From Marsupella aquatica (taxonomy: Eukaryota > Plantae > Marchantiophyta): a DNA stretch of 64,000 nucleotides. The notes under the pieces were generated by a model. It did not search any database. It was not told the DNA's origin and was given only the letters and a program-made list of their open reading frames with translations. Below are positions 14,778 to 63,129 of this stretch, one piece after another (positions within the stretch are counted from its first letter, which is position 1; every line of letters starts with the position of its first letter). Location of the stretch: assembly GCA_973895155.1 (NCBI GenBank), contig OZ316894.1, forward strand, positions 3,372,944 through 3,436,943, in the 5' to 3' direction. The position numbers and the translations under genes are program-made.

Positions 14778-15235
14778 ATTTCCTCACTTTCTGGTCGCAG
14801 GGTCACAGACTGGTAACCCAAGACCAATCCGTCATTACCCTATAAGCATTTCTTCACTTTCTGGTCACAGGGTTACAGACTAGTAACCCAAGACCAATCC
14901 ATCATTACCCTATGAACATTTCCTCACTTTCTGGTCACTGGGTTACATACTAGTAACCCAAGACCAATCCGTCATTATCCTATAAACATTTCCTCACTTT
15001 CTGGTCGCAGGGTTACAAACTAGTAACCCAAGACCAATCCGTCATTACCCTATAAACATTTCCTCACTTTCTGGTCATAGGGTTACAGACTAGTAACCCG
15101 AGACCAATCCACCATTACCCTATAAGCATTTCTTCACTTTCTGGTCATAGGGTTACAGACTAGTAACCCTAGATCAATCTGGCCTTACCCTATACAGACC
15201 AGTAACCCAAGATCAATCTGGCATTACCCTATACA
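14778..15235 (+). repeat. Tandem repeat, 70-bp unit, six copies plus a partial, each unit with a hairpin
   Basis: Units start at 14778, 14848, 14918, 14988, 15058 and 15128; the core is GGGTTAC-agacta-GTAACCC. Confidence 0.93.
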
Positions 15236-15417
15236 AAGTTTCTGTTTATCACATTATACAATAAAGTTATCCGCAATGTGAGTGATTAAGGGCGACTGGT
15301 CGTGACTTGTACCTAAATTAAAGGGTGAGTTAACTTAAATGGAAACTTCAAGTACTCAGGGGCGAGAAACAGGGTGAATCCCGTTTTTTGTCCTTCCAAC
15401 AGTGTCGGGCCCTTCTC

Positions 15418-30880: not shown

Positions 30881-32428
30881 TTATTGTCTGACGAAGAAAT
30901 CGTCAGAAGCATACTGAAGCATCTCATCCTCATCCAAAAGCTTATCTGCACTTGCGATGTCTCCCTTTATCCTCTGCACGAGATCACCGAGAGAGGTGAA
31001 TCGCATCTCACCACGAATGAATCCCAAGACGATGATACTTAATTCTTTGCCGTAGAAGTCACGACTGAATTCATGGAGGATATTCACTTCCACTGTGACC
31101 CCTTCACCATCTGCAAAGGTGGGTCGGTTCCCTATATTCATAACCATCTTGTAAACCCCACCATCCAATTCCTCTGCATCGTGTTGTTGTGCCCATCCGA
31201 AATAGACCCCTTTTGGTAATGCAAGGAAACCGGTGGGTAACTCGAATGGATCTATGTTGGCTGTGGGAATGCCCATCTGCTTGCTTCCACGGCCAAAACC
31301 TTGCACAATGTGTCCCCGTGCACGAAGCGGAAACCTTTGTTGCCTCGACGGTTCTCCTGAATCATTTCGAGATTGTAAAGCTGCGGAAGTTCCTTCCACC
31401 TCAAGAGTGGCTAGGTAGAAAGATGGTTCATCCTGAAGCTCCACAAGCTTTAGGGGCAGTGTCTCAATAAAATTCTGTAAGTCAGCCGCATCAGGAAGAC
31501 TCTGAAGTATGAGTTGTGGGTTCCTTTGTCTGCATAAAGTCACATCTTTCTTTCCCTGGCTACAGCCGATGACGATCTTCGCGCCATGGTTGCAGAGGCT
31601 TGCCACAGCTCCGAGAAGATCAGCAGGAGAGTAAGCAGTTGCCAAAACAGAGTGGAGAAACACGGAGTCGAAAGGACCGTATGAATCTGGCAAATCCTCG
31701 ATGTGGCCAAGCCAGCAAATGACATCGTCGTTCATTTCTTTGACGGTCCCCAGCACTGACATGGAGAAGTGGGTCACGACCACCGAAGCTGGAGTGGCCG
31801 TCACCAGTAGCTCCTGTACAAATGCAGCACTCCCACCCCAAACAAGAACCCGAGAGTTCCTCTGCACTCGCCCAGCAGCAAGCAGCAAGCTCAGCTTCTC
31901 CTTCACCGCTGGAGAGATTCCACCACAACAGTCCTCATCCACAAAGAGAAACTCGTTCTCCAAGTAGAATTCCTCCAGCTGCTCTGTGTGTTCCTGTCTG
32001 GTAGATTTGAACGTTCCATCTGGAGAGGTATCACCTTGGGCAACGGCAGAGGTCCCAACGAATGGCTCCGTGGAGGAACCAGGAGCACTTTGATTCCAGC
32101 CAAATCTCTTCCAACACAAAGATTCAGGTCTTTCCTTCCCCCTGTTCTGCAGACCTTGACATTGAGCTCTGCAAGGAAAATATTTCGGAAGCTGGAATTT
32201 GAAAACTGGAAGACGATGACTCGAAGCGCAACGCTCGCTGAAGATTGCAAATGCGAAAGCAGGAGGCTGAGGTTTAGAGGACAAAATCGAGGAAACACTC
32301 ATTGAGATGGGATTTGAGAGGGTAGATTGCAGAGCTGAGGAGAAAAACCGCTGCTGAGGATTGTCCTGTACAGATACACAAGACGAGTTCCATTGCCAGC
32401 ACTTGAAAACCTGGCCACATGCTTCCAT
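30881..32428 (-). CDS. Intronless fusion protein: putative transit peptide, SAM-methyltransferase-like fold and C-terminal riboflavin kinase
   Basis: 515-aa ORF. The C-terminal region (about 30881-31330) has GFGRGSKQMGIPTAN, GVYFGWA, NIGNRPTF, VEVNIL and LGFIRGEMRF flavokinase motifs. The middle region (RVLVWGG...GPFDSVF...GAKIVI) looks like a Rossmann methyltransferase fold. The N-terminus is Ser-rich; the start codon is uncertain. Confidence 0.88.
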   Translation of the reverse strand: MEACGQVFKCWQWNSSCVSVQDNPQQRFFSSALQSTLSNPISMSVSSILSSKPQPPAFAFAIFSERCASSHRLPVFKFQLPKYFPCRAQCQGLQNRGKERPESLCWKRFGWNQSAPGSSTEPFVGTSAVAQGDTSPDGTFKSTRQEHTEQLEEFYLENEFLFVDEDCCGGISPAVKEKLSLLLAAGRVQRNSRVLVWGGSAAFVQELLVTATPASVVVTHFSMSVLGTVKEMNDDVICWLGHIEDLPDSYGPFDSVFLHSVLATAYSPADLLGAVASLCNHGAKIVIGCSQGKKDVTLCRQRNPQLILQSLPDAADLQNFIETLPLKLVELQDEPSFYLATLEVEGTSAALQSRNDSGEPSRQQRFPLRARGHIVQGFGRGSKQMGIPTANIDPFELPTGFLALPKGVYFGWAQQHDAEELDGGVYKMVMNIGNRPTFADGEGVTVEVNILHEFSRDFYGKELSIIVLGFIRGEMRFTSLGDLVQRIKGDIASADKLLDEDEMLQYASDDFFVRQ

Positions 32429-34298: not shown

Positions 34299-37200
34299 CT
34301 ACTTGAGAATGTCATCTAAAGTTCTTACAGTGAGTGCTTCTTGACCTATCTTCTGAATATTAAGCAAGAACTCAAGCACAACATTCATGGATGGGCGATT
34401 TCCTGGCAGCAGCCTTGCACAAAAAATACCTAATTGTAATGTTAACATCATTTGCTTCCTAATGATGGCGTTACTAGCACCCTCAATTTTGAGAGTTGGG
34501 GTGAGCACGTTGAATGGTGTAATTCCAGGTGTAATATTTGACTCTTGGAAACTGTGCTGCACTATGGCCACTAGATCCTCATCTTGGCCAGAAGGGGTCA
34601 TGCTCTGTGATTGTGTAACTGGTTTTCCGGTCAAGAGCTCAAGCAGAACCACTCCGAAGCTATAAACATCTCCTTTGGTGCTGACTCTTGCACCTGTCCC
34701 ATATTCTGGATAACCAAAGTATCCCACAATGTTGTTAGGAACAAAACAACAATCTTATCTCAAGTTCCAATTCTAGTGCTGGTTTGAATGCACCACCTTG
34801 AACAGGTTTAAGTAGATCATAAATTCCACCGCTCAATGCTTTTATTAGCCAGGACCCGAAGTAACTACCCTAGATAGAATACTTGAGTATTTGATTGCCC
34901 CATAATTATCATCTCAAAGGGCGGGGATGGGTTTGGGGTCGCACTGGGTTAAATTATCTATCCTGGAAAAAAAAACGAAATGCTGCGAAGTTATGCAATT
35001 AATCCTCATTCCAATCACTCTGTAGATGAAGTAGAATATACAGTTTATTAGTAGAAGACGCTCACCTGGAGGCATGTAGCCAAAGGTGCCACAAACTGTC
35101 GAGGCAGACACTTCCCCATTCTCGCCATGATTGCTGTATGCCACGAACTTGGAAATCCCAAAGTCACACAGCTTCGGTTCCAAATCTGCATCCAGAAGTA
35201 TGTTGCTTGGCTTCAAATCCCTATGTATGATCGGGTTTGGAAGTTCATGGTGAAGGTACACCAATCCATGCGTCACACCCAAGAGTATGTTCAACCTTTG
35301 TGCCCAAGTCAACTCACACGGTGTATCCCCATGCAGATTGCTATGTAAACTCCCCTTGGGCATGAATTCCAGCAAGATGGCTTTCAGATCCACACTCGAG
35401 TACATCCCGACAACCTTAATGATATTGCGGTGCCGCAACTGAGCAAGAGTGTGCGCCTCACTCAAGATCTCCTTCTCATCATGCTGCTTCCCCTCGATTG
35501 TAGAGAGCCCTCGATCCTTGAAAACTTTGATAGCGATGATCTCACCGCCAGGTAAATCCGCCCTGTACACAGTACTTTTGGCGCCGTTTCCAATTGCAGA
35601 GTCCTCCCCAGTCCTACTGCGGCAAGTATGTCAGACTTCGTAAAGAACCTCATCGAAGGAACATTGGTGAATGTTAGGAGTCCGAGGTCCCCGCTGTCTT
35701 TCTTGCCATAACAACGGGAGGAGATATACAAAGCTCCAACGAGAATTACAACAAACCCCAGAGCAGAAACTACAGATATCCACACTCGGGGACATTCAAA
35801 ACCGTTGCAATGTGACCTCGACCTCACTGGCGAAGCTATTCCAACAGGACAGAGTCGCTGAGGCCCAAGAATAGCTCCACACAGCCCAGGATTTCCCAAA
35901 AATGAAGCCGTCGTCAGATTGTCCTGGAAAGCACCCGAATTAGGGATCGGCCCACTAAAGTTGTTATAAGAACAGTTGAAGGTCGTAAGACTCTTAAGTA
36001 ATCCAAGATCTTGAGGAATTGACCCAGAAAGCTTATTGAAAGAGAGATCCAAGCTTTCAAGCGAAAGACATCCTCCAAGACCCAAAGGAATTGGTCCTGA
36101 GATGTTGTTAGAGGATACATTTATGACCAGAATTCTGGTTAGTTCATTCAATTGTGATGGCCATGAACCAGAAAATAGATTACCGCATAGATTCAATGTC
36201 GCCAGAGAAGACATTGGAGCAAAAGCGTCCCCGGGAATGCTGCCCGTCAATTTGTTGTGTGAAAAATCCACTAATAGCAGCTGTGTACAATTGCCCAAGG
36301 AAGCCGGAAGCACCCCGATGAATTTGTTTGCAGACATATCCAATTGCTGCAAATTGATAAGTTGGCCAATCTCCGCTGGTATCGAACTACCCAAGTTATT
36401 GTCACTGAGGTCAAGGGTTTCCATCAAGTGAAAGTTCCTGAGGAGCTCCGCTGCAACACTTCCAGAAAGCTGATTCTGGCCAAGGAAAAGAAATTGTAGA
36501 TTGGTCAAATTGGCAAGCCCGAGGGGAATTTGTCCACTCAGGAGATTTCCTCCGAACTCCAAATGAAACAGGTTGGAGCAATTGCTGAAGGATTCTGGAA
36601 TCGGGCCATGAAAAGAGTTATTATTAGCAACAAAGCGCTGCAATCGCTGGAAGCTTCCGAAATTTCCATCTAACTCCCCGTGGAATGGATTATATTGCAC
36701 TCCTATGGATTGCAAGCTCGACGTTAGATTGTAGATGAAAGTAGGGAATGAGCCCGAGAGAAGGTTATGGCCAATCAAGAGATGTGCCAATTGTGACAGG
36801 TGTCCTAACTCAGCAGGAGGTTGACCGGTCAGCTGATTGTCGTCAACGGCAAGATTGTCTATAGCAGTGCAATTTCCGAGCGATGGTGGAATCATCCGGA
36901 CAAATTGTTGGACGAGACCAAAAACTGACGAAGTTGGGAAAGTTGACCTATCGCTGTGGGAATTTCACCTTGAAGATTCATGTCAGCTAAATAGACGTTC
37001 TGCAAATTTTGCAATGATACTATCCAAGGGCGCAGACCGTGAGGATAAAATCCTGGGTTCTCAGCCAACCAGAGTCCTTGTAAACGTGTACAATTGGATA
37101 ACGACGACGGAATTACGCCACTGAATGCGTTGTTGGAAAGATATAGTTGTTCCATGTTTCTCAGCAAACCTATTTCATCTGGGATAGAGCCTGCTAACTG

Positions 37201-38430
37201 GTTCTCGTACAAATGAAGGAATGTAAGGGAGGTCACGTTGCATATGGATCTGGGAATCTCTCCGACGAGACCAGAATTACTGATATCCAAAGTTTCCAAA
37301 TTAGTCAGTGAACCGATCTCAGGTGGGATCTCAGATCCATCCCACACGTTGGATTCCAATCCCAGCCCGGTAAGATTTGATAATTGGCTCCACGCTTGAG
37401 GTAGCTGACCAGCGAATCGATTGAAGCCAAGGCCGAAGTTCTGCAGCGAAGTCAGATTCAATGTCCACATTGGAAAACTCCCCTCGAAACTGCAGAGCTT
37501 TAAGCGGAAATCTTGCAAGTGAATCAGCTCACCCAACTCGAAAGGGAGTTCCCCTCCGAGTCTAATATTGTTGCCCAACCACAAGTGGGTAAGTGAGGAG
37601 CAGTTACCCAAAGTAGATGGAATAGAACCAGAAACTGAGCTGCTGTTGAGACTCAGAAACTTCAAGTAGGACAAGGCGCCAAATTCAGGAGGAATGCCTC
37701 CGTCAAAAGAATTATTACCTAAATCCAAATGTCTTAGAGCCGAGCAGTTGCCCAGTGATCCTGGAATCCCTCCAGTGAGGTTGTTGTTGGACAAGTCTAG
37801 AATTTGAAGTTTGTCAAGATTTCCGACTGGAGGAGGGATAATTTCGTTCAGTTCATTGAAGGAAGCGTTGAGATGCAACAGATTGGAGCAGTTGCCAAGA
37901 CTAGCTGGTATGGAGCCGTGCAACAAGTTCCGCGAGAGATCCAGATGCTGCAGATCTAAAAGCTGACCAAGGAGGGTTGAGACCGTTCCTACCAGGTTAA
38001 GGCCTGCCAGATTCAGGGTGGTGACATGCTTGGAGTTCGCTGCACATCCAACCCCTGGCCATCTACTGGGATCAGAGTCATTTGCGCGCCAGCTATTGAG
38101 CACTCCCAGCGGATCGACCGTGATTTCGCTCTTGAAACCAATGAGAATGTCCACATCCTTGCTAGCCTTGGCCGGGTTGATTCTTACGTTTTGTTGAAGT
38201 GAGTGTCGTCTCCTTCCCCGGGCGGATGTGGAAAGAGGAGTGCTGGACGCAGCAGTGGCTACTAGATTATTGAACGTTGGTGTGTCAGCTCGTCCCATTC
38301 TCCTTAAAGCTATAGCATGACTCTCTATACTGCTGCCGATAGAACCGCACAAAGAGCATTGCCCCTTTGCGAGGATCACAACCGTGATGATAAGATGCCG
38401 GAGAAGAGTGCCTCGAATCGTTGCTGCCAT
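34299..38430 (-). pseudogene. LRR receptor-like kinase copy A (LRR-XII, FLS2/EFR-like), two single-base frameshifts as assembled
   Basis: Signal peptide, LRRNT, more than 20 plant LRRs, TM helix, kinase HRDLKPSNILL and DFG, GTFGYMPP|EYG split by a GT-AG intron at 34706-35065. Frameshifts lie near 36895 and 35610. Confidence 0.88.
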
Positions 38431-39538
38431 GATTAGTGACGCTCTGCCAGATGATGGATCCACGTACTCTTTCCTAGTGCCTCGACAATCTGAGCATCAC
38501 TGATCGAACTACGCAATCGATCTCTGCATTTCGCATTGCTCAAATGGTCAGAGGACTGACTAATCAGACCCTAAGTCAGCCTTACGACCGCCCTACACTA
38601 GACGAGTGCTCTCAAGATGCAAGAGTGATCAGAACACCGCACCCGAATTGAAATAATTAGACAGATGGAAGGCGGCGTCGTCTGAAAAAATCCATCTGCG
38701 GTAAACCAGACCATTGTGCACCACTCTTTGAATCTTTTCATTTAGGTGAGCATTCGGAAAAAAGTCCTGTACGCAGTACGTTACATGAGAAGACAGATAA
38801 GAAAGCAGGGCCGGATAAGCCCAGCTTACCAGCACGAATGAACGTTATGATTCTGACGTCCACTGGTAAGGTAGAGTGGCTCGATAGAACTGACGAGAAG
38901 GGCCTGCAACCCTGTTTGCGTAGGCGGCTCAGACACGCACCTTCAGATCCTCACACTTTCAGCACAGAGGACATCCAAAGGAATTGCCGGACCTGGGAAT
39001 CAGACGGGCAGCGCAACTGTCAGTAGAATTCAAATTCCGAGGGCTCTACTAGTGGGGAGTCCAACGTCCCGGTCCCACGTGCACCATAGAGGAATTGCAA
39101 TGGTTTGGATGACTTTGTCTGCGCACAATTCCGATGAATTACGATACTCGTAGACTCGTACACAATATAACTTGTGTAGACGTAATAACCTAGAGAGTCT
39201 CATGTAACATGAGATTTCACAATCTCACGGATTCTTGGAGCCCCGGGCGGTAGGACACAGAAATCGTCCTTCCTCGTCCTTCCTCGTCCTGCCGGGCAGG
39301 CAGGTTGGACACAGGCTGGACTTCCATTCAGTTGATTATGTAATGCAAGCGGTGTTTCAAAGCAGCACAACAGTCATCGATAGATCAGGAGGGCACAACA
39401 GTCATCAGGAGGGGCAAACTAATGCAAACTAAGAAGAAGGTCACATTCCTTTGACGACAATTTTATCAATCACAGCAATTTTTCCAGCAGCAGGCAGTCA
39501 TGAGTCAGCTGAATCTCCTTCGTCCTCGTTGCGATTTC

Positions 39539-39804
39539 TGAAGAAACTGACGAGCGCAGCTTCCCATAATTTACACAGCAAGAATACAGAATGAACAGTG
39601 AATTGGTCCTTAAGAGAGTGGTTGGCGAGAGAATGCACCGCACCAGATCAGTGAATACTAATCGGACCGTAAGTAAGATTAACCCTAAATCTAACGGTAA
39701 TCACACATATACAGGCCCCCCCAGATAACACCTAAGCGAAGGGGGAACAGACAAAGGAACAGCAAGTGGCGTATGTACACCGGATGAACGTCGTAAACTT
39801 AACA
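39539..39804 (-). repeat. 3' LTR (266 bp)
   Basis: TG...CA ends; identical to 44947-45212; next to the PPT acgggaggggg on the minus strand. Confidence 0.96.
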
Positions 39805-39852
39805 CCCCCTCCCGTCCGGTAATCCATCAAATGCACAGAGCAAGTGGGGAGA

Positions 39853-40431
39853 ATGGACGTAAGCAGAGTGGGCCTGCAAGTGCTCTGGGTGTTGTTGGGT
39901 ACGATAAGCTTGGTACTCAAGGTGCTGGGAGATATGGTCGAGACTCAATTCCAGTATGTACAATGGAAGTTGAATGTGAGTGCGACTGAGGTAGAAGAGC
40001 ACCAGGGCGAGAGAGAGGACGAGCCACAGATAGGGGAGCAGGTCAAACAGGTAATGGTGAAAGTCACCCGAGCGCCTGATGTACAGGGTGCACAGCACAC
40101 GATACAGCCAGTTGTGCCAACATCCCGCTACTTCAGTGACCATACCACAAGGCGAAAGTACTATGCAGTGGTGCGGGGATATGTTCCAGGCTTGTATGAT
40201 TCCTGGGAGGACTGTGAGCCACAAGTAAAGGGGTATAAGGGTCAGGTGTACAAGTCCTTCAAGTCGAGAAGCGAGGCAGAACGATACTTGCAGGAGAAGT
40301 TGCAGCGAGCAGGGGACCACGCAGTCCATGGGCACCGATTTCGAAGCATGGGGCAAGGCAATTTTGGTGGTCAGCTATATAGATGTGAATACTGCTTAGA
40401 GGTATATCACGATGCTACGCATCCTGAGTAG
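39853..40431 (+). CDS. Retrotransposon antisense ORF: hydrophobic N-terminus, RNase H1 N-terminal (hybrid-binding / caulimovirus viroplasmin-like) domain and His/Cys tail
   Basis: 192 aa from the ATG at 39853. 40156-40290 encodes KYYAVVRGYVPGLYDSWEDCEPQVKGYKGQVYKSFKSRSEAERYL, matching the family pattern YYAVxxGxxPGIYxxWxxCxxQVxGyxgaxyKsFxtxxEAxxyl. Confidence 0.85.
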   Translation: MDVSRVGLQVLWVLLGTISLVLKVLGDMVETQFQYVQWKLNVSATEVEEHQGEREDEPQIGEQVKQVMVKVTRAPDVQGAQHTIQPVVPTSRYFSDHTTRRKYYAVVRGYVPGLYDSWEDCEPQVKGYKGQVYKSFKSRSEAERYLQEKLQRAGDHAVHGHRFRSMGQGNFGGQLYRCEYCLEVYHDATHPE

Positions 40432-43400
40432 CTGCGTTACCCAGGGTAGGTAGAATGTCGCGCAGGGACTTCATGCCAAGGAATTCACGATGTTTCTCAA
40501 ACTTCCATCTTGGAAGGGATTTTGTAAGGATATCTGCAGGTTGCTCTACAGTGGGAATGTACTTAAGCGTCACTTCTCCTTCCAGGACTCTTTCCCTGAT
40601 GTAATGGTGCTGGAGTTCGATGTGCTTGGTCCGAGCATGGAAGATGGGGTTCTTCGCCAAATTAATTGAGCCTTGGTTGTCGCAATGTAGGTTTAGATGA
40701 GCATCTTGCAAGGTGGGTTGACTGGCCACCGACAGATTTGAAATCACCTCCTGATTTTGGCAATTCAATGCCACCCGAATTTCTGGGATGAAGCTCAACT
40801 CTGAGAGCAGACGCCTAAGGAAGACAGCTTCTCGAGCTCCTTCCGATAGGGCTCTGTACTCAGCTTCAGTTGTACTCTGTGAGACCGTTGCTTGTCGTTT
40901 GCTCGCCCAAGTAACAGTGCCCCCAGCAAATTGGAACACATAGGCCCCAATGGATCTTCGAGTGTCTTTGCAAGCAGCATGGTCTGAGTCAGTGTAGCCT
41001 GAGAGAGACAAAGTTCCAGTTCTCTGGAAGAGTAAGCCGAAATCAATGGTGGATTTGATGTATCTGAGAACGTGCCTTGCAGCATCCATGTGTTTTTGTT
41101 GTGGAGATGACATAAATCTGCTGAGAATCCCCACCGCATACGCCAAATCCAGTCTGGTGTTAGTTAAGTAGATCAACTTGCCAACTAACTTGCAGTAGTG
41201 AGTGGCATCCACGTCAGGTGATAGCGTATCAGCCGATACATCAAATCCTTCGGGTAGAGGAGTCGCTGCTCCTTTGCAGTCTTGCATTTCAAATTCCTCC
41301 AGGAAGCTTTGGCAGTAGTCACGTTGATGGATGAACATTCCATCGGCCACATCTACAAAATCTATTCCCAAATACCTGGTGACTTTGCCCAGATCCTTCA
41401 TTTTGTACTGTTGGCTGAGTTGTGCTTTGACCTCATCAATTTTGGCATCGTCATTGCCAGTGATGAGTAGGTCATCAACGAAAAGAAGCAGAAGAACAAT
41501 TTTCCCTCCTTTGTTGATGAAGTACAAATTATGATCAGCAGTGCTCCGGGTCCACCCTTTTGAGCGAAGGAACCGATCAACTTCCTCATACCATGCACGC
41601 GGGGACTGCTTTAAGCCATAGATGGATCGATTTAGCTGGCACACAAGGTGTTCGGATCCTGGGACCTCAAATCCTGGTGGTTGCACCATGTAGATTAGTT
41701 CCTTGAGCTTGCCGTTCAAGAAAGCCGTGATGACATCCATTTGGCTGATGGACCAGCCAAGAGCTGCAGCGAGTGCAATAACCAGTCTAATGGTTGACCA
41801 CTTGACAACCGGTGCGAAAGTGTCCTCAAAATCAACTCCAAAGCGCTGTTCAATACCACGAGCCACCAGGCGAGCTTTCAGTCGAGTGCGAGTGGGGTTT
41901 ACTTCTGGCTTCGCCCTATACAGCCACCTAGCAGAGATGGCCCTCTTTCCTGGTGGGAGTGCAGTGAGGACCCATGTCTCATTTTCGATCAGAGAATCAA
42001 ATTCTTCTTTCATAGCTGCATTCCACTGAGGGTCCAAACGGGCTTGCTGGAATGAGATGTTTTCATTCACAGGGTCGGTAGTCTCGACTAGGCAGACATC
42101 AGGGTTGTTGGGTCGAAAATCCAACACGTAATCTTGGCGTAGACGAACTGGGAGTTCCCTTGCACGAGATGACTGCCTGCGAATTGGGAATGGCAATGGT
42201 AATGTGCTCGTAGGGGTAGAGTCAGCTGGTGCGGGCTCAACTTCAAGAGAAGAATCGACTGGCTCAAGTGGCTCTAAGTTGGAGTCAGTACTATTACCAG
42301 GATCTACAGGCACAGAGTCGGGAGATGCAGGTTCAGATGCAGAGTAGGAATTTTGTTCCTGTGTTGCAGGAGAGATATAAATGGACTGAGCCGGTGAAAT
42401 CAATGGTAATTCTGCAGTGGCTTGAGATGGTTTGATGTTGAAGTCAAACATCTTTAACTCATTGAACACAACATCACGACTGATGTAGATTTTTCTTTTG
42501 ATAGGATCATAGCACCTGTATGCTTTCGATTTCTCGTCATATCCCACCAATGCAGTCCGAATGGACTTTGCTGACAGCTTATGTCTCAGTTCACTAGGAA
42601 CATGAACGTACGCCAGGCATCCAATAATTCTTAGACTAGACAGGTCAGGCTTGGCATTGTATAATTGCTGGAAAGGTGTGGAGGAGGTCAAAGAGGAAGT
42701 GTCACACCTGTTGAGCACATACGTGGCTGATTGAATGAGCTCATCCCATAGGAACGTGGGAGCTCCACTCGCAATGTGGGCGCTGCGTGCTGCTTCGAGC
42801 AGTGTTCGGTTTTTCCTTTCTGCTACTCCATTTTGCTGAGGTGTGCGAGCCGCTGTGAGTTGCCTCTTGATCCCTTGTCTGTCGCAAAATTGGCAGAATT
42901 CGTTGGACAAGTATTCACCTCCTCGATCTGATCGAACACATTGAATTTTGCTGTCGAATTCATTTTCGACCATAGCTTTAAAGTCTTTGAACTTTAAGAA
43001 GGCTTCACTTTTGGCTTTCAGGAAATACACCCATGTGTAGCGAGAGAAATCATCCGTGAATGTAAGCAAATATTTTGCTTTAGAAAGAGATGAAACAATG
43101 AAGGGGCCACAGAGATCCGTATGAACCAATTGCAGTGGTTTGGTTGACCTGTTGGCAGATTTCTTGGGTATGCGCTCTCGATGTTGTTTCCCCATGATGC
43201 ATGTATCACAGACATGATCCTCCAATGGCAGCTTGGGCAGACCTTCAACCAACTCGTTTGAAGACATGTTGTAAACTCTGCGGAAGTTCACGTGACTGAG
43301 CCTTCGGTGCCATAGCTCAAGAGGTGACACATCGCTTTGTGTCTCACTGTCAGCATTGCTCGTAGGTGTGTTGGATGGAGGACTGCTGGCATGCTCGTCC

Positions 43401-44872
43401 GTGCTGTCTACTAATGAAATGTGTATTTCAGAGCACAGCTTGGCATTGCCCTGAATAGACGAGTCTAGTCGGTATAGACTATTGTGTCTATCCCTTGTTG
43501 CCCTCAGAAAGATCTTATTAGGATCTTCTTTATCCAACACGTAGCAATGACGGGAATTAAATAATACATTGTGGCCTTCATCAGCCAACTGACCAACTGA
43601 CAAGAGATTGCGAGTCATAGCAGGCACGTACAAAACCTTTTTGACCACTTTATTTCCATTGAACTTAGTGCTGCCTCTTCCAGCAACTGGAATGCGTGCA
43701 CCAGAGGCAGTAGTTACATTGGAGGTGGATGCGTATGGAACAACGTGATTAAGAGTACTCTTGTTCCCAGTTACATGAGTACTAGCACCTGAATCAACTA
43801 GCCAATCTTGACTAGCTTTGAATTCTGTGAGATTAACTTCTAAGATGCTTCTGTCGGGATCGCTGTCGGACTCACATTCTTCAGGTTCCACCGTCTCAGC
43901 CACGTTTGCATGGTGCATGCCTTTCTTAATGTCCGCATGCTTGATTTGTAGGCCCTTGATTTGGCTCTCAATCTTCTTGAGGCATTCCCCTTCCCAGTGA
44001 CCAATATGCCCACAGAAATTGCAGGCTTCGGTCTTCCTGGCTGAAGAAGGTGCGCTTCGTCCCCGTCCACGATAGTTGTTTCTGCCTCTGCCACGTCCAC
44101 GAAGAGGGCCACCACGCTGGGTGTTGTAGCTAGTCATCAGTGCTTCTTCGGTGTCGTTGCTCTGTAAAGCCCGTTGCATTTCTTCGGCCTCAAGGTGACC
44201 AATAAGGTCTGAGAATGACAGTGTCGGGAACTGATGCAGCAAGGTACCAAACGACATGATAAATGGCTTCCAGCTCGCAGGTAATCCTTTGAGAGTGGTG
44301 CGGATTAGTTCCTTATCTTCTATAACAAAATTGATGTCACCTAGCTGCATCACCAAGTTGTCAATCTCACGAATGTATTCCTCAACACTACTCCCTTCGG
44401 ACATGTGCATCTTAGACAGTTTATCCCTGAGGATGAGCTGCTTACCCATGGCCGCGGATTCAAAACGCGATTTCAGCTGCAGCCATATCTTGGCAGGATC
44501 GTCAATGTACTTCTTCACGATAGGGAAGATGTGATCCTTGACCGTCTGAGAGAAGATGTAGATTGCTCTTTCCTTCTTTTCTTCGATTTGCTCTGGCGTG
44601 AGTTGCATTGGCTTCGTGGGGTCTGGACTGACCAGCTCGAACCACACTTTATCCTTGCGGAACTGTCGCTCCACCTTGAAGGACCACCCGATGAAATTCT
44701 TACTGCCATCGAGCTTGTCCTTGTCTGCATAGACGAGGCCTTTGTCAAACTCGTAGTGGACATTCTGAGCTGCAGAAGGTCCAGTGCTTGGCGATGCTTG
44801 CTGTGTGCTGCTGCCTGGTGAGGCAGCTTGGGAGCCGCTGCTCTGTGATGATCGCTGTGGGCCGCCAGCCAT
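40415..44872 (-). CDS. Copia Gag-Pol polyprotein (gag, zinc knuckle, protease, integrase, RT, RNase H)
   Basis: Single ORF with first ATG at 44872. Motifs in copia order: CNFCGHIGHWEGEC, WLVDSGAS, LWHRRLSH, HTDLCGP/RSDRGGEY/NGVAERKNRTL, FVDD, YTDSD/TEAEY/HCDNQ/ADILTK. Confidence 0.97.
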   Translation of the reverse strand: MAGGPQRSSQSSGSQAASPGSSTQQASPSTGPSAAQNVHYEFDKGLVYADKDKLDGSKNFIGWSFKVERQFRKDKVWFELVSPDPTKPMQLTPEQIEEKKERAIYIFSQTVKDHIFPIVKKYIDDPAKIWLQLKSRFESAAMGKQLILRDKLSKMHMSEGSSVEEYIREIDNLVMQLGDINFVIEDKELIRTTLKGLPASWKPFIMSFGTLLHQFPTLSFSDLIGHLEAEEMQRALQSNDTEEALMTSYNTQRGGPLRGRGRGRNNYRGRGRSAPSSARKTEACNFCGHIGHWEGECLKKIESQIKGLQIKHADIKKGMHHANVAETVEPEECESDSDPDRSILEVNLTEFKASQDWLVDSGASTHVTGNKSTLNHVVPYASTSNVTTASGARIPVAGRGSTKFNGNKVVKKVLYVPAMTRNLLSVGQLADEGHNVLFNSRHCYVLDKEDPNKIFLRATRDRHNSLYRLDSSIQGNAKLCSEIHISLVDSTDEHASSPPSNTPTSNADSETQSDVSPLELWHRRLSHVNFRRVYNMSSNELVEGLPKLPLEDHVCDTCIMGKQHRERIPKKSANRSTKPLQLVHTDLCGPFIVSSLSKAKYLLTFTDDFSRYTWVYFLKAKSEAFLKFKDFKAMVENEFDSKIQCVRSDRGGEYLSNEFCQFCDRQGIKRQLTAARTPQQNGVAERKNRTLLEAARSAHIASGAPTFLWDELIQSATYVLNRCDTSSLTSSTPFQQLYNAKPDLSSLRIIGCLAYVHVPSELRHKLSAKSIRTALVGYDEKSKAYRCYDPIKRKIYISRDVVFNELKMFDFNIKPSQATAELPLISPAQSIYISPATQEQNSYSASEPASPDSVPVDPGNSTDSNLEPLEPVDSSLEVEPAPADSTPTSTLPLPFPIRRQSSRARELPVRLRQDYVLDFRPNNPDVCLVETTDPVNENISFQQARLDPQWNAAMKEEFDSLIENETWVLTALPPGKRAISARWLYRAKPEVNPTRTRLKARLVARGIEQRFGVDFEDTFAPVVKWSTIRLVIALAAALGWSISQMDVITAFLNGKLKELIYMVQPPGFEVPGSEHLVCQLNRSIYGLKQSPRAWYEEVDRFLRSKGWTRSTADHNLYFINKGGKIVLLLLFVDDLLITGNDDAKIDEVKAQLSQQYKMKDLGKVTRYLGIDFVDVADGMFIHQRDYCQSFLEEFEMQDCKGAATPLPEGFDVSADTLSPDVDATHYCKLVGKLIYLTNTRLDLAYAVGILSRFMSSPQQKHMDAARHVLRYIKSTIDFGLLFQRTGTLSLSGYTDSDHAACKDTRRSIGAYVFQFAGGTVTWASKRQATVSQSTTEAEYRALSEGAREAVFLRRLLSELSFIPEIRVALNCQNQEVISNLSVASQPTLQDAHLNLHCDNQGSINLAKNPIFHARTKHIELQHHYIRERVLEGEVTLKYIPTVEQPADILTKSLPRWKFEKHREFLGMKSLRDILPTLGNAATQDA

Positions 44873-44934: not shown

Positions 44935-44946
44935 GCTCTGATACCA
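44935..44946 (-). promoter_or_regulatory. Primer binding site for initiator tRNA-Met
   Basis: TGGTATCAGAGC lies directly inside the 5' LTR on the minus strand. Confidence 0.95.
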
Positions 44947-45212
44947 TGAAGAAACTGACGAGCGCAGCTTCCCATAATTTACACAGCAAGAATACAGAAT
45001 GAACAGTGAATTGGTCCTTAAGAGAGTGGTTGGCGAGAGAATGCACCGCACCAGATCAGTGAATACTAATCGGACCGTAAGTAAGATTAACCCTAAATCT
45101 AACGGTAATCACACATATACAGGCCCCCCCAGATAACACCTAAGCGAAGGGGGAACAGACAAAGGAACAGCAAGTGGCGTATGTACACCGGATGAACGTC
45201 GTAAACTTAACA
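44947..45212 (-). repeat. 5' LTR (266 bp)
   Basis: Identical to 39539-39804; followed by the PBS. Confidence 0.96.
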
Positions 45213-45416
45213 ATTTCTACGTCATGAGTCTCCAGGATTTCAAGAATGGGTGCGCGATGCTAGTCAACAGTACCGGTACAGTCCATATATGTCGATGGAT
45301 GGGAACGCCACCTCGATCCCACTCTCGCTTCCTCCTGCTCGTCGCTGAAGTGGAGCTCTCGCCCCGAATTGGAGGTCTCGCTCACTCTGGAGTGCGCACC
45401 GTCTAATTAATTGGGA

Positions 45417-50654: not shown

Positions 50655-53600
50655 TCAGAAATATAATGTCCAGTATAGGCCCTCCTCCTTGAGAAGGTCA
50701 TCTAAAGTTCTTATACTGAGTGCTTCTTGACCTGTCTTCTGAATATTCAGCAAGAACTCAAGAACAAAATTCATGGATGGGCGATTTCCAGGCAGCAGCC
50801 TTGCACAAAAAATACCTAATTGTAATGTTAACATCATTTGCTTCCTAATGATAGCGTTACTAGCACCCTCAATTTTGAGAGTTGGGGTGAGGACGTTGAA
50901 TGGTGTAATTTCAGGTGTAATATTTGACTCTTGAAAACTGTGCTGCACTGTGGCCACTAGATCCTCATCTTGGCCAGAAGGGGTCATGCTTTGAGATTGT
51001 GTTACTGGTTTTCCGGTCAAGAGCTCAAGCAGAACCACTCCAAAGCTATAAACATCGCCTTTGGTGCTGACTCTTGCACCTGTCCCATACTCTGGATGTC
51101 CAAAGTATCCCACACTGTTGTTAGGAAGAAAACAACATTACTCCAAAATCAAGAGTAATGTCAGCCCACAATACCAATAAGTATTGATCTCTTAGTACTA
51201 CTCTAGTATCTCAAGTTGCAATTTTGGTGCTGGTTTGAATGCGTCACAATGAACAAGTATAGGTAGATGATAATTCGGCGACTGAATGCTTTTATTAGCC
51301 AGGACCTGATGTAGCCTACCCTACTAGAGTACTCGAGTATATGAATGCCCCATAATTATAATACAGAGAGTAACTACTGTATCATATCAAATGGCAGTAA
51401 TGGGTTTGGTATCTCACTGGGTTAAACTTTCTCTGTTGGGGAAAAAAATATCAAATGTTGCCTACATTTTCTAGTTGGAAAACTCTAACCAGTTTTCAGT
51501 TTTATTTCAGCTGTTAGGAAGGACCCACCATGATTGTAGATCCGTGACCATGTGGCCCAACCAGAAAGTGCATGCTCGCCAATTACTGATTTTATTAATT
51601 GTGGATACAAAAGCCAAGGAGAGAAGACTCTGGTCAGACAGACTCCTGGCTATACCTCGAAATCTGCCTGTGCTCTAGCAAGTCTTGTTTCCAAGTTATG
51701 CAATTAATCCTCATTCCAGTCACTCTGTAGATTAAGTAGAATATAGTTAATTAGTAGAAGACGCTCACCTGGAGGCATGTAGCCAAAGGTGCCACAAACT
51801 GTCGAGGCAGACACTTCCCCATTCTCCCCATGATTATTGTATGCCACGAACTTGGAAATCCCAAAGTCACACAGTTTTGGTTCCAAATCTGCATCCAGAA
51901 GTATGTTGCTTGGCTTCAAATCCCTATGTATGATCGGGTTTGGACGTTCATGGTGAAGGTACACCAATCGATGCGTCACACCCAAGAGTATGTTCAATCT
52001 TTCTGCCCAAGTCAACTCACACGGTGTATCCCCATGCAGATTCGCATGTAAGCTTCCCTTGGGCATGTATTCGAGCAAGATGGCTTTCAGATCCACACTC
52101 GAGTACATCCCGACAACCTTAATGATATTGCGGTGCCGCAACTGAGCAAGAGTCTGCGCCTCACTAACATCTCCTTCTCATCATGCTGCCCCCCCTCAAT
52201 TGTAGGAGCCCTCGATCCTTGAAAACTTTGATATCGATGATCTCACCGCCAGGTAAATCCGCCCTGTACACAATGCTTTTGGCGCCGTTTCCAATTGCAG
52301 AGTCCCCCCCCGCTGTCCTTCTTGTCATAACAACGGGAGGAGATATACAAGGCTCCAACGAACAGTACAACGAACCCCAGAGCAGAAACCACAGATATCC
52401 ACACTTGGGGGCATTCAAAACCGTTGCAATTGGACCTCGAGCCCACTGGCGAACCTATTCCAACAGGACAGGGTCGTTGAGGCCCAAGAATAGCTCCACA
52501 CAGCCCAGGAATTCCCAAAAATGAAGCCGTCGTCAGATGATCCTGGAAAGCACCTGAATTAGGAATCGGCCCACTGAAGTTGTTATAAGAAGCGTTGAAG
52601 GTCGTGAGATTCTGAAGCAGTCCAAGATCTTTAGGAATTGCTCCTGACAACTTATTGAAAGAGAGGTCCAAGCTTTCGAGCAAAGGACATCCTCCAAGGC
52701 CCAAAGGAATCGGTCCTGAGATATTGTTGACGGATACATTTATCACAACAATCTGGTTCAATTCAGTAAGTTGTGATGGCCATGAACCAGAAAATAGATT
52801 GCCGGATAGATTCAATATGGCCAGAGAAGACATTGTTGCAAAAGCTTCCCCGGGAATACTGCCGGTCAGCCTATTCTGTGAAAAATCCACTGATAGCAGC
52901 TGTGTACAATTGCCCAAGGAAGCCGGAAGCACCCCGATGAATTTGTTTGCAGACATATCCAATTGCTGCAAATTGATAAGTTGGCCAATCTCCGCTGGTA
53001 TCGAACTACCCAAGTTATTGTCACTGAGGTCAAGGGTTTCCATCAAGTGAAAGTTCCTGAGGAGCTCCGCTGCAACACTTCCAGAAAGCTGATTCCGGCC
53101 AAGGAAAAGAAATTGTAGATTGGTCAAATTGGCGAGCCCGCGGGGAATTTGTCCACTCAGGATATTTCGGCCCAATCCCAAATAATTTAGGTTCGAGCAA
53201 TTGCTGAAGGATTCTGGAACCGGGCCATGGAAATAATTATAACTGGCATGAAAGCCCAGCAAAAGCTGGAAGCTTCCAAAATCTCCATCTAACTCCCCAT
53301 TGAATGAATTATTTTGGAGTTCTATTCTTTGCAAGCTCGACGTTAGATTGTAGATGAAATTAGGGAAAGGACCAGAGAGAAGGTTCTGGCCAATCACGAG
53401 ATATGCCAATTGTGACAGGTGTCCTAACTCAGCGGGAACCTGACCGCTCAGCTGATTGATCTCAAGGACAAGGTTGTATATGGCAGTGCAATTTCTGAGC
53501 GAAGGTGGAATCACTCCGGACAAATTGTTGAACGCCACGAAAAACTGACGAAGTTGGGAAAGTTGACCTATCTCTGTGGGAATTTCACCTTGAAGATTCA

Positions 53601-55046
53601 TGTCAGCTAAATAGACGTCCTGCAAATTTTGCAATGACACTATCCAAGGGCGCAGACCGTTAGGATAAAATCCTGGGTTGTCAGCCAACGTGAGGCCTTG
53701 TAAACGTGAACAATTGGATAACGACGCGGGAATTAAGCCACTGAATAAGTTTTCGGAAAGATATAGTTGTTCCATGTTTCTCAGCAAACCTATTTCATCT
53801 GGGATAGAACCCGTTAAGTGGTTTCGGCTCAAAAGAAGGTACGCAAGGGAGGTCGCGTTGAATATGGATCTCGGAATCTCTCCGACGAGACCACAATTTC
53901 TGAACTCCAAAACTTCCAAAATAGGCAGTGAACCGATCTCAGGTAGAATCTCAGATCCATCCCACACATTGTATTCCAATCCCAGAAAGGTAAGATTTGA
54001 TAATTGGCTCCAGGTTTGAGGTAGCTGACCAACGAATCGATTGACACCTAGGTTGAGCTCCTGCAGCGAAGTGAGATTCAACGTCCATATTGGGAAACTC
54101 CCCTCAAAGCTGCATAGTAATACGCGAAAATCTTGCAAGTGAATCAGCTCCCCCAACTGGAACGGGAGTTCCCCTCCCAATCTTATATAGTAGCTCAACC
54201 ACATCTGGGTAAGTGATGAGCAGTTACCCAAAGTAGATGGAATGGAGCCAGAAATTGAGCAGTTCTCTAGACTCAGAAACTCCAAGTACGACAAGGCGCC
54301 AAATTCAGGAGGAATGCCTCCGTCAAAAGAATTATGACCTAAATCCAAATGTCTTAGAGCCGAGCAGTTGCCCAGTGATCTTGGAATCCCTCCAGTGAGG
54401 TTGTTGTTGGACAAGTCTAGAATTGAAGTTTGTCAAGATTTCCGACTGGAGGAGGGATAATTTCGTTGAGTTCATTGAAGGACACATTGAGATGCAACAA
54501 ATTGGAGCAGTTGCCAAGACTAGTTGGTATGGAGCCGTGCAACAAGTTCCGCGAGAGATCCAGATGCTGCAGATTTAAAAGCTGACCAAGGAGGGTTGAG
54601 ACTGTTCCAACCAGGTTAAGGCCTGCCAGATTGAGGGTGGTGACATGCTTGGAGTTCGCTGCACATCCAACCCCTGGCCATCTACAGGGATCAGAGTCAT
54701 TTGCGTGCCAGCTATTGAGCACTCCCAGGGGATCGCCCGTGATTTCGCTCTTGAAACCAATGAGAATTTCCACATCCTTGCTAGCCTTGGCGGGGTTGAT
54801 TTTTACGTTTTGGTGAAGTGAGTGTCGTCTCCTTCCCTCGGCGGATGTGGAAAGAGGAGTACTGGACGCAGCAGTGGCGATTAGATTGAACGTTGGTATG
54901 TCAGCTCGTCCCATTCTCCTTAAAGCTATAGCATGACTCTCTATACTGCTGCCAGTAGAACCGCACAAAGACAATTGCCCCTTTGCGAGGATCACAACCG
55001 TGATGATAAGATGCTGGAGAAGAGTGCCTCGAATAGTTGCTGCCAT
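50655..55046 (-). pseudogene. LRR receptor-like kinase copy B (LRR-XII-like), with multiple lesions
   Basis: Paralog of copy A. It has a 1-bp deletion near 54420, a juxtamembrane deletion near 52310 and further 1-bp deletions at about 52165-52210. The intron is 51092-51768 and the last exon 50655-51091. Confidence 0.9.
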
Positions 55047-57267
55047 GCTGACGCTCTGCCAGATGATGGATCCACGAACTCTTTCCTAGTGCGTCGACAG
55101 TATGAGCATCACTGATCGAACCACGCAATCACTCTCTGCATTTCGCATTGCTCAAATGGTCAGAGGACTGACTAATCAGACCCTAAGTCAGCCTTACGAC
55201 AGCCCTACACTAGACGAGTGCTCTAAAGGTACAAGAGTGATCAGAACACCGCACCCGAATTGAAAGGCGGCGACGTCTGAATAATCCATCTGCGGTAAAC
55301 CAGACCATTGTGCACCACTCTTTGAATCTTTTCATTTAGGTGAGCATTCGGAAAAAAGTCCAGTTAGTACGCAGTACGTTACATGAGAAGACAGATAAGA
55401 AAGCAGGGCCGGATGCCCGGATAAGCCCAGCTTACCAGCACGAATGAACGTTATGATTCTGACGTCCACTGGTAAGGTAGAGGTCGAAGAGTGGCTCGAT
55501 TGTCCCCAGACAGATGGAACTGACGAGAAGGAGCCTGCAAGCCTGTTTGCTTTGGCTGCTCACACACGCACCTTCAGATACTCACACCTTCAGCATAGAG
55601 CACAGAGGACATCCAAAGGAATTCCCGGACCTGGGAATCAGATGGGCAGCACAACTGTCAGTAGAGTTCAAATTCCGAGGGCTCTACTAGTGGGGAGTCC
55701 AACGTCCCGGTCCCACGTGCACCATAGAGGAATTGCAATGGTTTGGATGACTTGTCTGCGCACAGGTCCGATTAATGACGATACTCGTGGACTCGTACAC
55801 AATATAACCTGTCTAGAGGTAGTAACGCAGAGAGTCTCGTGTAACATGAGATTTACAATCTCACGTATTCTTTGAGTCCCGTGCGGTAGGACACACAAAT
55901 GCTCCTAGCTTCCTCGTCCTGCTCTCTCTGCGCGGGCACGCAGGTTGGACACAGGCTGGAATTACATTCAGTTGATTATGTAATGAAAGCGGTGTTTCAA
56001 GCAGCACAACAGCCATCGATCAGGAGGGCACAACAGTCGTCAGGAGGGCAAACAAATGCAAACTAAGAAGAAGGTAACATTTCTTTGACGGCAACTTTGT
56101 CAATCACAGCGATTTTTCAAGCAGCAGGCAGTCATGAGTCAGCTGAATGGGTCTCGTTCGTCCTCGTTGCGATTTCTACGTCATGACGTCTCCTGGATTT
56201 CAAGAATGGGTACGCGATGCTAGTCAACAGTACGGGTACAGTCCTACACATGTATCGATGGATGGGAACGCTACCTCGATCCCAATCTCGCTTCCTCCTG
56301 CTCGTCGCTGAAGTGGAGCTCTCGCGTCGAATTGGAGGTCTCGCTCACACTGGAGTGCGCACCGTCTAATTATTGCAAGAGTTCGGGATTTTATAAATGT
56401 GCTCTGAGAAACAGTGTGGACTATGGTTGAACTTTTACGCCCATTCGGAACTGGCTACCGTAGACTGGTCCAAGCTTAGGTTAGGGGTTACAATAAAATT
56501 TCTGGGCTCTTGACTTTGTCTGGTTACGTACCAACTTGATTTTCTGGGTTTGGTTGGTTCAGAATGTTGGTCAACTTCACTGTTTGTTGAATATGTTGGT
56601 CAATGTGTCACATTTGTACAAAAAGTTGCATGGACAAAATATTGGATAGTTTTGTATGGGGAAAAAACAAAATTGCATGCTAGTCAGTTTGGGATGATTT
56701 TATTTCATATTAATTTTTACTGTTCTTACTAGTAGGAGAAGGATAAAGGGACCAGTTTACTATAATAGGACCAAGTAAACTTTACAAAGAAGGAACAAAG
56801 AAAGAGGTATAGACATGACAAACTCAGAAGAAGAGGCCAAATGCAATAATGTGATGATCTAACAATCAACACTACTCAAGGAACTAATTTTTCAAGTGGG
56901 ACATGGATGTGTTGTAAGGGGGCAAGCCTCTACTCACCTGTGGTGCACTAGTAGTACCCATGGCTATAGATGTATAATATGGCCAGGGGATCTCACTATA
57001 TGAAGCCCCCCACACGGCATCCAATCCATGTGTTGTAGTCTTGAGCACCAAGGATGGGGGGCTCGTCAAACCAGCAGGCCAATGCAAGCATCATAGCAGC
57101 ACCCATGCAGTAGGGCCAAACAGGCAAAAACAGCCTAGAAGGAGAAAAAAAAAAGGTGGGGGGGCAGGCCCAGGTATAGTGGGTACACCAAGACCTAAGT
57201 TGCCATCCTAAACCCACAAAGCACTCAAAGAGTATAAGCAAACATCACTGCACCACCTTCACAGATG

Positions 57268-60764: not shown

Positions 60765-61993
60765 TCTACTACTATAATAACGAGTTTCCGACCATCGTCC
60801 CATTACAAAAGTGAAAAAGGAGGGAACAATGTTCAGCCTTCAAATATTTTCTAGAATTATTTAAGATTCTTGGATTGAGTAAGATGGGTACCTAAGATTG
60901 GTTCTAAGTTATAGTACAAGAGAGGTATGCTTATAGTACTTTTTGGAATGGAACATTAAAGTGGAAGTATATTATTTTATTCTATTTAGAGTGCATTTTG
61001 ACATGGAGCATTAAAGTAAAAATAGATTGACTTGAGAAAATGATTTTTGGGTGGGAGCAAGCACTAAGGGGAAGTAGAGTAGATTGACAATTAGATTAGT
61101 TTGGTTTTTGCTCTTTAATTATTTTTTAATTTTTTGGAGGTTAATGTCTTTGTTGCACATTTTTTAACTCATTTTTAAATCTTTTTAATGATGTTAAAGG
61201 GAAGAAAAAAGGAGGAGGAGGAAGGAGGAGGCACTAGCTAGGAGGGCAAGAGGGGAAAGCAAGGAACGAAAGGGAGAGGATAGGAGGGCAAGAGGGGAAA
61301 GCAAGGAAAGAATAAACATGGTTTGAATAGATGCCTTGGAGGTTATCTTGCATCTCCAATTTCTATGTGCAAACGCACAAGTTATTAAACACCACCACAA
61401 CCACTTTACTTTACCTTGACATCTTTCTCTCATCTCACCATTTTTTTTCACATTGACATATTTATCTCACCACAGCATTTTTTCTCACCTTTGATATATT
61501 TTCTCTCCTTGACATCATTTTTCACCTAGCTTGACATCTTTTCCTCAACTCAACATCTTACCTTTTGCTCACCTTGACATATTTATCTCACTACAATATC
61601 TTTCCATCACCCTCAACATCTTTTCTCTCCTCGACATCTTTTACTCACCTTGCCATCTTTTCTGTCCTCAACCTCCTTTTCTTACCTTGACTTATTTTCC
61701 TCATCTCAACATCTCTTTCTCTCATTGACATCTTTTTCCACCTCCACATCTTTACCTCACCTCCTTATCTTTGCCTCTCCTTGAAATCTTGCCCTTGCCT
61801 CGACATCTTTCTCTCACCTCCCTATCTTTTCCTCACCTCGACATCCTGCCCTCATCTCGATCAACATATTTTGCCTCACCTCGAAATCTTGCCCTCTCCT
61901 TGACATCTTGCCCTCGTCTCAACATCTTTGCCTCTCCTCGACATCTTGCTCTCACCTCAAAATCTTTCGTGCAACGCGCGGGCAGCAGGCTAG
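60765..61993 (+). mobile_element. Non-autonomous Helitron
   Basis: 5' end A|TCTACTACTATAATAA; 3' hairpin cgtgcaacgcgcg followed by CTAG|T; internal pyrimidine-rich cctcgacatctt repeats. Confidence 0.75.
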
Positions 61994-62779
61994 TCTCAAA
62001 TAAATGTTTACATGAGCTGCCCTTTACCCTGCAGTCACCTATTCAAGATTAAAACCATTAATTAAAAATTAATTAAATTCATTTACATTTGAATTATTTA
62101 AATTTAAACAAAAATTAAAAACTTTGAAAATTTGTAAAACTATTGAATATAAATAATAAATAGAAATTATTTATTTCTCTGAAAATTTAAAACTAAAAAA
62201 AACATATTGTTCCTACCAGTTGATTGCGTTTGGACTGTATGATGTGGTGGCTGCTATCTCACATCTCCAATTTGCTATCTGACTCACATCTCCAATTTTT
62301 ACATGGAATCACTACCACAATAGGTACATGGTCATGATCACACATAACATGCGTCAACAAATACATTGTAAAGTTTATATGTTTTTGCCTTGCCTTGACA
62401 TCTTTTCTAATCTTACATTTTTTTTTCCGGCCTTGAGTAATCTATTCATTAAAAGTGAATTATTATTCAATTTGTGAACATTTGGGCAATAGAAAGTGTA
62501 CATTTGGCTTTCAAAAAGTGTACATTTGGGCAAGAAATAAAAGTGATGGCCATCAGACATACCACCATGTTCATCTTTTATAAATGAACTAGGACGAGAC
62601 TCCTTCTAGTAAAGATCATTTTTTCTCCCTCAAGTTTATAATTGACTATTTAGGTGTAGAGTATTGTACTATAGTATACCTTTTGGGGTTAAAAAGTGTA
62701 CATTTAGAGACCAAAAAGTGTACATTTCGAGACCTAAAAGTGAACAAAATAAAATACACTTTTAATGAATAGGGTGAGT

Positions 62780-63129
62780 TTGGACATCCCTTTTTCTCCT
62801 CAAGATCTTTTTTCACCTAGCTTGAGATCTCTTCTTCAACTGGACATCTTTTCTCACCTTGACATCTTATCTTTTTCACATCTTCCCATCTTTTTTTCTC
62901 ACCTTGGCATCTTTATCTCACCACAACATCTTTCCCTCACACTCGACATCTTTTCCTCATCGTTACATCTTCTTCTCACCTCCATTTGTTTTTCTCACCT
63001 CCACTACTTTTTCTTACCTTCAGTGACATCTCATCAACATCATTCTTTTTTAATCTCAACAACTTTTCTTCACCTAGATATCTGTTCTCACCTCAACATC
63101 TTTTGTGCAACGCATAGGCATCGGGCTAG
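62780..63129 (+). mobile_element. Second Helitron 3' segment of the same family
   Basis: The same gacatctt repeats end in tgtgcaacgcataggcatcgggCTAG|T. Confidence 0.65.

Follow-up and report, generated by a model that had tools for sequence, protein, structure and literature searches.

An antisense open reading frame with a predicted RNA:DNA hybrid-binding domain in a young Ty1/copia retrotransposon of Marsupella aquatica

According to our analysis, the minus strand of a 64,000-nucleotide stretch of Marsupella aquatica DNA (the window) contains a complete 5,674-bp Ty1/copia LTR element which carries, besides gag-pol, an uninterrupted 192-amino-acid open reading frame (ORF) on the opposite strand (39853 to 40431, plus strand, convergent with gag-pol). 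This ORF encodes a hybrid-binding domain (HBD) of the RNase H1 type and, in our judgment, is very probably an accessory gene that codes for protein and is under selection, irrespective of its mechanism. Its product is likely a non-catalytic protein, predicted to bind RNA:DNA hybrids.

The element has two TG...CA LTRs of 266 nt (3' LTR, 39539 to 39804; 5' LTR, 44947 to 45212; both minus strand), which are 100% identical, and the same 5-bp target site duplication, ATTTC, flanks both ends (39534 to 39538 and 45213 to 45217). A polypurine tract (PPT; 39805 to 39813, minus strand) lies directly upstream of the 3' LTR, while the primer-binding site (PBS; 44935 to 44946, minus strand) adjoins the 5' LTR and is presumably the complement of the 3' end of tRNA-Met, of the full-tRNA 3'-end type. 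The intact gag-pol is a single ORF of 1485 amino acids (40415 to 44872, minus strand) ordered Gag-PR-IN-RT-RH, with a copia reverse transcriptase (RT; PF07727) and its catalytic motifs present, as expected of Ty1/copia. The PBS starts with TGG right at the LTR and is not of the half-tRNA type; the Bryco lineage of REXdb is described as having a PBS complementary to a half-molecule of tRNA-Met (PMC6317226). The empty site is preserved in a paralogous receptor-kinase copy 16.6 kb away, where the flanks join at 56172 to 56176; this fixes the element boundaries securely and marks the insertion as recent. The original prediction of an intact young element with identical LTRs, bearing an uninterrupted ORF opposite gag-pol, is in line with all of these features. 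Among named sequences, the closest pol is that of the leafy liverwort Calypogeia fissa (58% identity).

The antisense ORF starts at an ATG 48 nt inside the 3' LTR boundary, in a context with A at −3 and G at +4, and an out-of-frame ATG at 39831 (52 codons) lies upstream and overlaps its start. It had been proposed to fill the interval from the PPT to the pol stop; it is indeed located there, but it runs past the pol stop and overlaps the final 17 nt of pol (40415 to 40431). In first-order Markov simulations of the interval, ATG-initiated ORFs of at least 192 amino acids, in any frame, appeared in 5 of 3000 runs. The location between pol and the 3' LTR is that of the plant antisense ORFs termed aORF-3R, and the 3' LTR is the presumed source of an antisense promoter. 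A sense-strand ORF of 176 amino acids (39799 to 40329) was rejected as an antiparallel shadow, having neither a Pfam match nor a counterpart in the related locus L007 described below.

The hybrid-binding module had originally been proposed from the sequence motif, and the profile search substantiates it: residues 102 to 145 (nt 40156 to 40287) match the whole PF01693 (Cauli_VI) profile (1 to 44 of 44) with 68.6 bits (E = 5.3e-19), against a Pfam cut-off of 21 bits. From Pfam and structure comparison we delimit the HBD to residues 102 to 146 (40156 to 40290, plus strand). Its sequence matches the RNase H1 HBDs of yeast (1qhk; E = 2.8e-8) and human (3bsu; E = 0.002). The AF2 model of the full-length protein has a pLDDT of 61.6 and that of residues 86 to 192 a pLDDT of 73; the latter superimposes on the human HBD-hybrid complex 3bsu with an rmsd of 0.8 Å over 45 residues (target TM 0.89, Foldseek E = 2.8e-3). 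In a second structure search 1qhk ranked top, but with a Z score of only 3.7 and an rmsd of 2.4 over 47 aligned residues. The contact residues W118, Y133, and K134 align to human W43, F58, and K59 and are kept, while S135 replaces K60. For the human HBD, W43A and deletion of FKK are reported to abolish heteroduplex binding and K59A or K60A to cost about 10-fold in affinity, and the HBD raises the substrate affinity of cellular RNase H1 (PMC6846478). Pfam detected PF01693 only, and no catalytic RNase H domain, in the 192-amino-acid ORF and the scanned family members. The product shares sequence, fold, and W/F/K contact residues with the RNase H1 HBD, but it differs from RNase H1 in lacking the catalytic domain, in the Ser at the K60 position, in the hydrophobic helix and His/Cys tail flanking the HBD, and in being encoded by a transposon.

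The N-terminal part (residues ~6 to 45; 39868 to 39987, plus strand) is hydrophobic and then amphipathic by Kyte-Doolittle analysis, and the AF2 model places a helix at residues 3 to 49. The 19-residue hydropathy maximum is 1.98 in the window ORF and 2.61, 1.67, and 1.21 in the homologues P0005, P0006, and P0001, respectively; this helix is a possible membrane anchor. The linker which follows is variable and predicted to be disordered (pLDDT <50 at residues 43 to 86). Downstream of the HBD, the tail H156-x4-H161-x16-C178-x2-C181 (40318 to 40395, plus strand) is a putative zinc site by conservation, all four residues being retained in 7/7 family members that reach the C terminus, and it is modeled as a helix plus a beta-hairpin. 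Its Pfam matches are below threshold (zf-H2C2_2, E = 0.1 to 0.4; HalOD2, E = 0.0015) and the structure searches barely probed it, so we can only guess at zinc binding. Neither this tail nor the N-terminal helix had figured in the original proposal. When the ORF core was paired with the element's own RNase H, complex prediction returned an uninformative score of 0.00.

The family includes seven further protein clusters, one of them from C. fissa (P0239, a gene model). The word-indexed search gave three family clusters among 31 candidates, and P0237, P0239, P0247, and P0251 (the last of them truncated) came from a profile search over 1.84 billion representatives; the remainder of the 150 profile matches listed were assigned to generic HBD proteins by their matched stretches and an inspected subset. 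Compared with P0001, P0005, and P0006, the window ORF is identical at 36, 34, and 35 of 45 HBD positions (76 to 80%) and at 18, 21, and 22 of 40 tail positions, while the linker retains 13, 4, and 6 of 43 (9 to 30%). The excess of domain over linker identity is significant in each case (Fisher p = 6.5e-4, 7e-10, and 8e-9, respectively). Such conservation in three homologues points to purifying selection on the encoded protein, as judged from these alignments. Open frames in the homologues span 205 to 213 amino acids; in neutral simulations the frame survives in 2.6% of runs with 0.15 substitutions per site and in 0.35% with 0.3, and retrieval by similarity to the window protein favors intact homologues. 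P0239 has lost several of the conserved HBD residues.

Within the proximate family, contigs from runs X1 to X4 (two studies) cover the ORF with 0 to 4 differences. The same runs contain contigs of a sister family with ~85% identity that spans the interval from the PPT to the pol end. Its 14 listed differences within the ORF fall in 12 codons, with 5 synonymous changes, 6 replacements in the loop at residues 168 to 174, and H186R. Among the 40 of 1258 differences listed there is no stop and no change in the RCEYC motif, and one 1-nt gap lies somewhere in 39801 to 39985, before or within the ORF. A relative with ~80% identity has at most ~86 nt between its PPT-adjacent match and the pol end, with just 27 nt on the joint side; it therefore seems to leave no space for the ORF, which would make the ORF accessory and dispensable. 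Retention is seen in the same-family contigs and the sister family, but apparently not in this relative.

Two homologues may be tied to copia pol genes through the sizes of their contigs. P0006 lies on a contig of 3896 nt, as does the top pol match P0008 (75% identity), and P0005 lies on one of 3974 nt, as does the pol relative P0134 (70%). The chance of two such exact size matches is roughly 2e-5 and both pairs fit the available space, the linkage being by equal contig sizes, with the strand of P0005 and P0006 unseen. The pols P0008 and P0134 cluster with the window pol in a clade with support of 100/99.

A further instance was found with the pol alignment, by which the best 79 of 461 metagenome loci were fetched. 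L007, the sole locus among these best 79 of 461 with more than 50% pol identity, carries a convergent antisense ORF of 213 amino acids which ends 18 nt past the pol stop and matches PF01693 with E = 1.1e-10. The L007 pol belongs to a sister clade, and the window and L007 clades join with support of 95/91. Its antisense product is without the hydrophobic N terminus and the His/Cys tail, and its HBD has the lowest score of 153 on the family profile. Run against 10,021 translated segments, the family and generic HBD profiles matched nothing beyond the window and L007. No HBD was detected in the other 78/79 related copia loci (best 79 of 461), 45 of which have at least 700 nt after pol (46 with L007 counted). 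The HBD tree, with 37 rows and 45 columns, lacks resolution and neither supports nor rejects a single origin of the window family and L007 (p-AU = 0.50); the arrangement may be older than the separation of the two clades, or the domain may have been captured at this position on two occasions. The antisense PF01693 ORF in L007 and the conservation of domain over linker both speak for a transposon accessory gene, as had been proposed, and against passive capture of a host fragment.

Broader scans added no related loci. The ORF-alignment scan found none among 60 stretches of viral contigs and none among 228 of metagenome contigs, although L007 is in the latter collection, which shows that these scans are insensitive; the pol-alignment scan of viral contigs gave 0/61. 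Pfam likewise gave no match for six long antisense ORFs taken from five distant loci. Just past pol in five distant copia loci we observed related proline-rich antisense frames (L018:4909-5406, L021:4345-4962, L022:1905-3121, L038:5824-7178, and L073:1738-2367 (-)), which may be shadows of GC-rich sequence; the four frames scanned, from L022, L038, and L073, had no Pfam match.

Concerning function, the reading that we favor, at a probability of roughly 0.4, is that the protein coats the element's reverse-transcription hybrids and keeps host RNase H from destroying them. Antisense transcription would proceed from the 3' LTR or the PPT region on the opposite strand, and the predicted hybrid binder would be anchored by its N-terminal helix at the membrane or particle where the element RNA is packaged. 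There it would compete with host RNase H1, which locates its substrate by the same domain. We favor this shielding role because the domain is the hybrid-finding module of RNase H1 without the nuclease, and because host RNases H restrict the yeast copia element: loss of RNase H1 and H2 is reported to increase Ty1 mobility about 12.5-fold, with accumulation of Ty1 cDNA hybrids (PMC4214602). Several observations argue against it. The yeast effect appeared only when both RNases H were lost, and RNase H2 is not known to have an HBD with which the protein could compete. Because reverse transcription occurs within particles, the protein would need either packaging or a supply of escaped hybrids to act on. 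The upstream out-of-frame ATG overlaps the ORF start, the K60 equivalent is a Ser, the ORF appears dispensable in view of the ~80% relative, and the L007 protein has neither the N-terminal hydrophobic part nor the His/Cys tail. More tentatively, and with less confidence than in shielding itself, we entertain the idea that a bryophyte copia clade encodes an anti-RNase H counter-defense, a membrane-anchored and zinc-stabilized HBD decoy, and that the module was captured repeatedly (in the window family and in the L007 sister clade) under recurrent selection for hybrid control.

We regard it as rather unlikely that the protein instead binds double-stranded RNA (dsRNA), arising from convergent transcription or host RDRs, and thereby damps small-RNA silencing of the element, given that the human HBD favors hybrids over dsRNA. 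The convergent ORFs overlap by 17 nt and would yield dsRNA if both were transcribed, a DRBM-like role has been proposed for the aORFs of sunflower Tekay (PMC11728184), and the homologous dsR motif of the caulimovirus P6 protein (TAV) binds both dsRNA and hybrids in vitro (PMC5902531). Yet that same domain is reported as not needed for the suppression of RNAi (PMC5902531), which weakens the original analogy with P6/TAV as a silencing suppressor.

Similarly doubtful is a helper acting in trans on the element's own reverse transcription, where the protein would hold hybrids at the RT/RNase H or tether the RNP to the membrane, providing the substrate-binding module absent from copia RNase H. The HBD normally acts while covalently tethered to its nuclease, and most copia elements replicate without one, as illustrated by the 78/79 related loci (best 79 of 461) that gave no match. 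The hydrophobic N-terminal helix suits a tether, and in cellular RNase H1 the HBD increases substrate affinity (PMC6846478).

That the protein is a self-limiting copy-number factor, which binds element hybrids or RNA and slows its own retrotransposition, we consider improbable. It has been suggested that antisense transcription holds retrotransposition in check (PMC7264820), a protein bound to hybrids could block the RNase H of RT or strand transfer, and the family looks low-copy, its element contig having ~5 times the depth of the lowest-depth contigs in run X1 (depth is not copy number). On the other hand, the element has just inserted, with identical LTRs, and self-limiting elements tend to be outcompeted, as argued in PMC5408684.

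Still less probable is a passenger, that is, a captured host or microbial gene fragment, or what is left of a nested insertion, that does nothing for the element. It would agree with the apparent absence of the ORF from at least one relative (~80% identity), with the residues lost in P0239, with the promiscuity of the HBD, found on RNase H, UvrD, and PIF1 proteins, and with one HBD capture by a fungal Helitron (PMC4289320). Against it stand the open frames of 205 to 213 amino acids with strong domain-over-linker conservation, the two homologues tied through equal contig sizes to pol lineages 25 to 30% diverged, and the very different second antisense HBD ORF at the same position in the sister clade (L007). 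A mini-TAV mimic binding TOR or ribosomal proteins and promoting translation is very improbable, for although the P6 dsR domain binds TOR, eL13, and eL18 (PMC5902531), gag-pol is one continuous ORF that needs no reinitiation, no other part of P6 is present, and no viral structure matched the full-length model (pLDDT 61.6) in a fold search at E ≤ 0.001.

Among known systems, the ORF most resembles the aORF-3R (eORF-3'R) of plant Ty3/gypsy elements, which likewise lies in antisense between pol and the 3' LTR, converges with gag-pol, and is conserved in relatives (PMC7264820, PMC11963269, and PMC6317226). Named examples are Grande gene23, RIRE2, Retand with TRP28 (PF04195), and Ogre with a plant mobile domain (PF10536). 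These gypsy elements have long 3' regions and encode other domains, whereas the window ORF resides in a compact 5.7-kb copia host and has PF01693 alone, with neither TRP28 nor the plant mobile domain of the Retand and Ogre ORFs. According to PMC6317226, eORFs occur in 582 copia elements, the sense type being characteristic of SIRE. The SIRE env-like eORF-3'F is also an extra 3' ORF in a copia lineage and has a hydrophobic segment, but the SIRE eORFs are sense-oriented and, according to PMC6317226, share no common conserved domain, while ours is antisense. PF01693 is absent from the eORF domain table of that survey (Additional file 4), which lists no copia domain and covers ORFs of at least 250 codons.

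The dsR domain of P6/TAV (mini-TAV) is likewise this 44-residue motif, carried by an accessory gene that stands apart in a reverse-transcribing element of plants. P6 itself is large, has several domains, and is made from its own 19S RNA, in contrast to the 192-amino-acid window ORF with PF01693 as its sole Pfam match, and no further similarity was found. The aRH of Tat, Ogre, and Retand is, likewise, an acquired cellular RNase H-related module in LTR retrotransposons (PMC4408406), but it is catalytic and lies within the gypsy Pol, whereas the window HBD is non-catalytic, outside Pol, and antisense. The ORF resembles an aORF-3R accessory gene, is a member of PF01693, and is not RNase H1, P6, or a Retand/Ogre ORF. 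Our full-text search of the literature found no PF01693 protein as an extra gene of an LTR retrotransposon and no conserved antisense 3' ORF in copia, the closest case being the single Helitron capture in Pleurotus described in PMC4289320. The original suggestion of an undescribed copia architecture appears to hold, within this search, for the presence of PF01693 and for conservation in copia, but antisense 3' ORFs as such are known from plant gypsy elements (PMC7264820); the combination of an antisense HBD ORF with a copia host is apparently undescribed.

What the antisense 3' ORFs of plant LTR retrotransposons do is not settled, mainly because the encoded proteins look like nothing of known activity (PMC7264820). 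Here the product has a structurally solved nucleic acid-binding domain with known loss-of-function mutations, so its role is directly testable. With this finding the class also takes in the copia superfamily and, probably, liverworts. If the shielding role is true, the retrotransposon would encode its own antagonist of restriction by host RNase H, which would also be a possible R-loop-binding reagent. The logic would then be comparable to that of the VANC anti-silencing proteins of DNA transposons.

Elsewhere in the HBD family, PF01693 domain pairs are fused to UvrD/REP or PIF1 helicases (P0322, P0365, P0383, P0356, P0316, P0337, and P0378), suggesting hybrid-targeted helicases. The HBD neighbors in the atlas are stand-alone Basidiomycota PF01693 clusters at 0.82 and 0.88 to 0.90, which we take only as leads to the donor of the domain, and no retroelement polyprotein was found among 20 HBD-bearing proteins scanned, mostly the longest matches. 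The RNase H of the element itself has ~25 additional residues separating the catalytic Glu from the Asp that follows, relative to distant copia loci (window 41,020 to 40,680, minus strand; pol residues ~1336 to 1398), 319 query residues corresponding to 293 codons in L001; this insertion is seen too in Calypogeia P0013 and in L007.

The element lies ~1.1 kb upstream of the ATG of the first of two tandemly duplicated LRR receptor-kinase genes (34,300 to 38,430 and 50,680 to 55,050, minus strand), with its 3' LTR facing the gene, while the second copy has the empty site. The two copies are ~90 to 95% identical and both appear broken into several ORFs by frameshifts or introns. A second, decayed copia element with RVT_2 and gag (4,312 to 7,144, minus strand) is 28% identical to the intact pol and has no HBD match. 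The window also contains a 515-amino-acid ORF with a C-terminal riboflavin kinase domain (30,881 to 32,428, minus strand), a 70-bp tandem array at 14,708 to 15,264, a degenerate 127/49-bp array at 34 to 1,064, and a pyrimidine-rich array with ~19-bp periodicity at 61,385 to 63,084.
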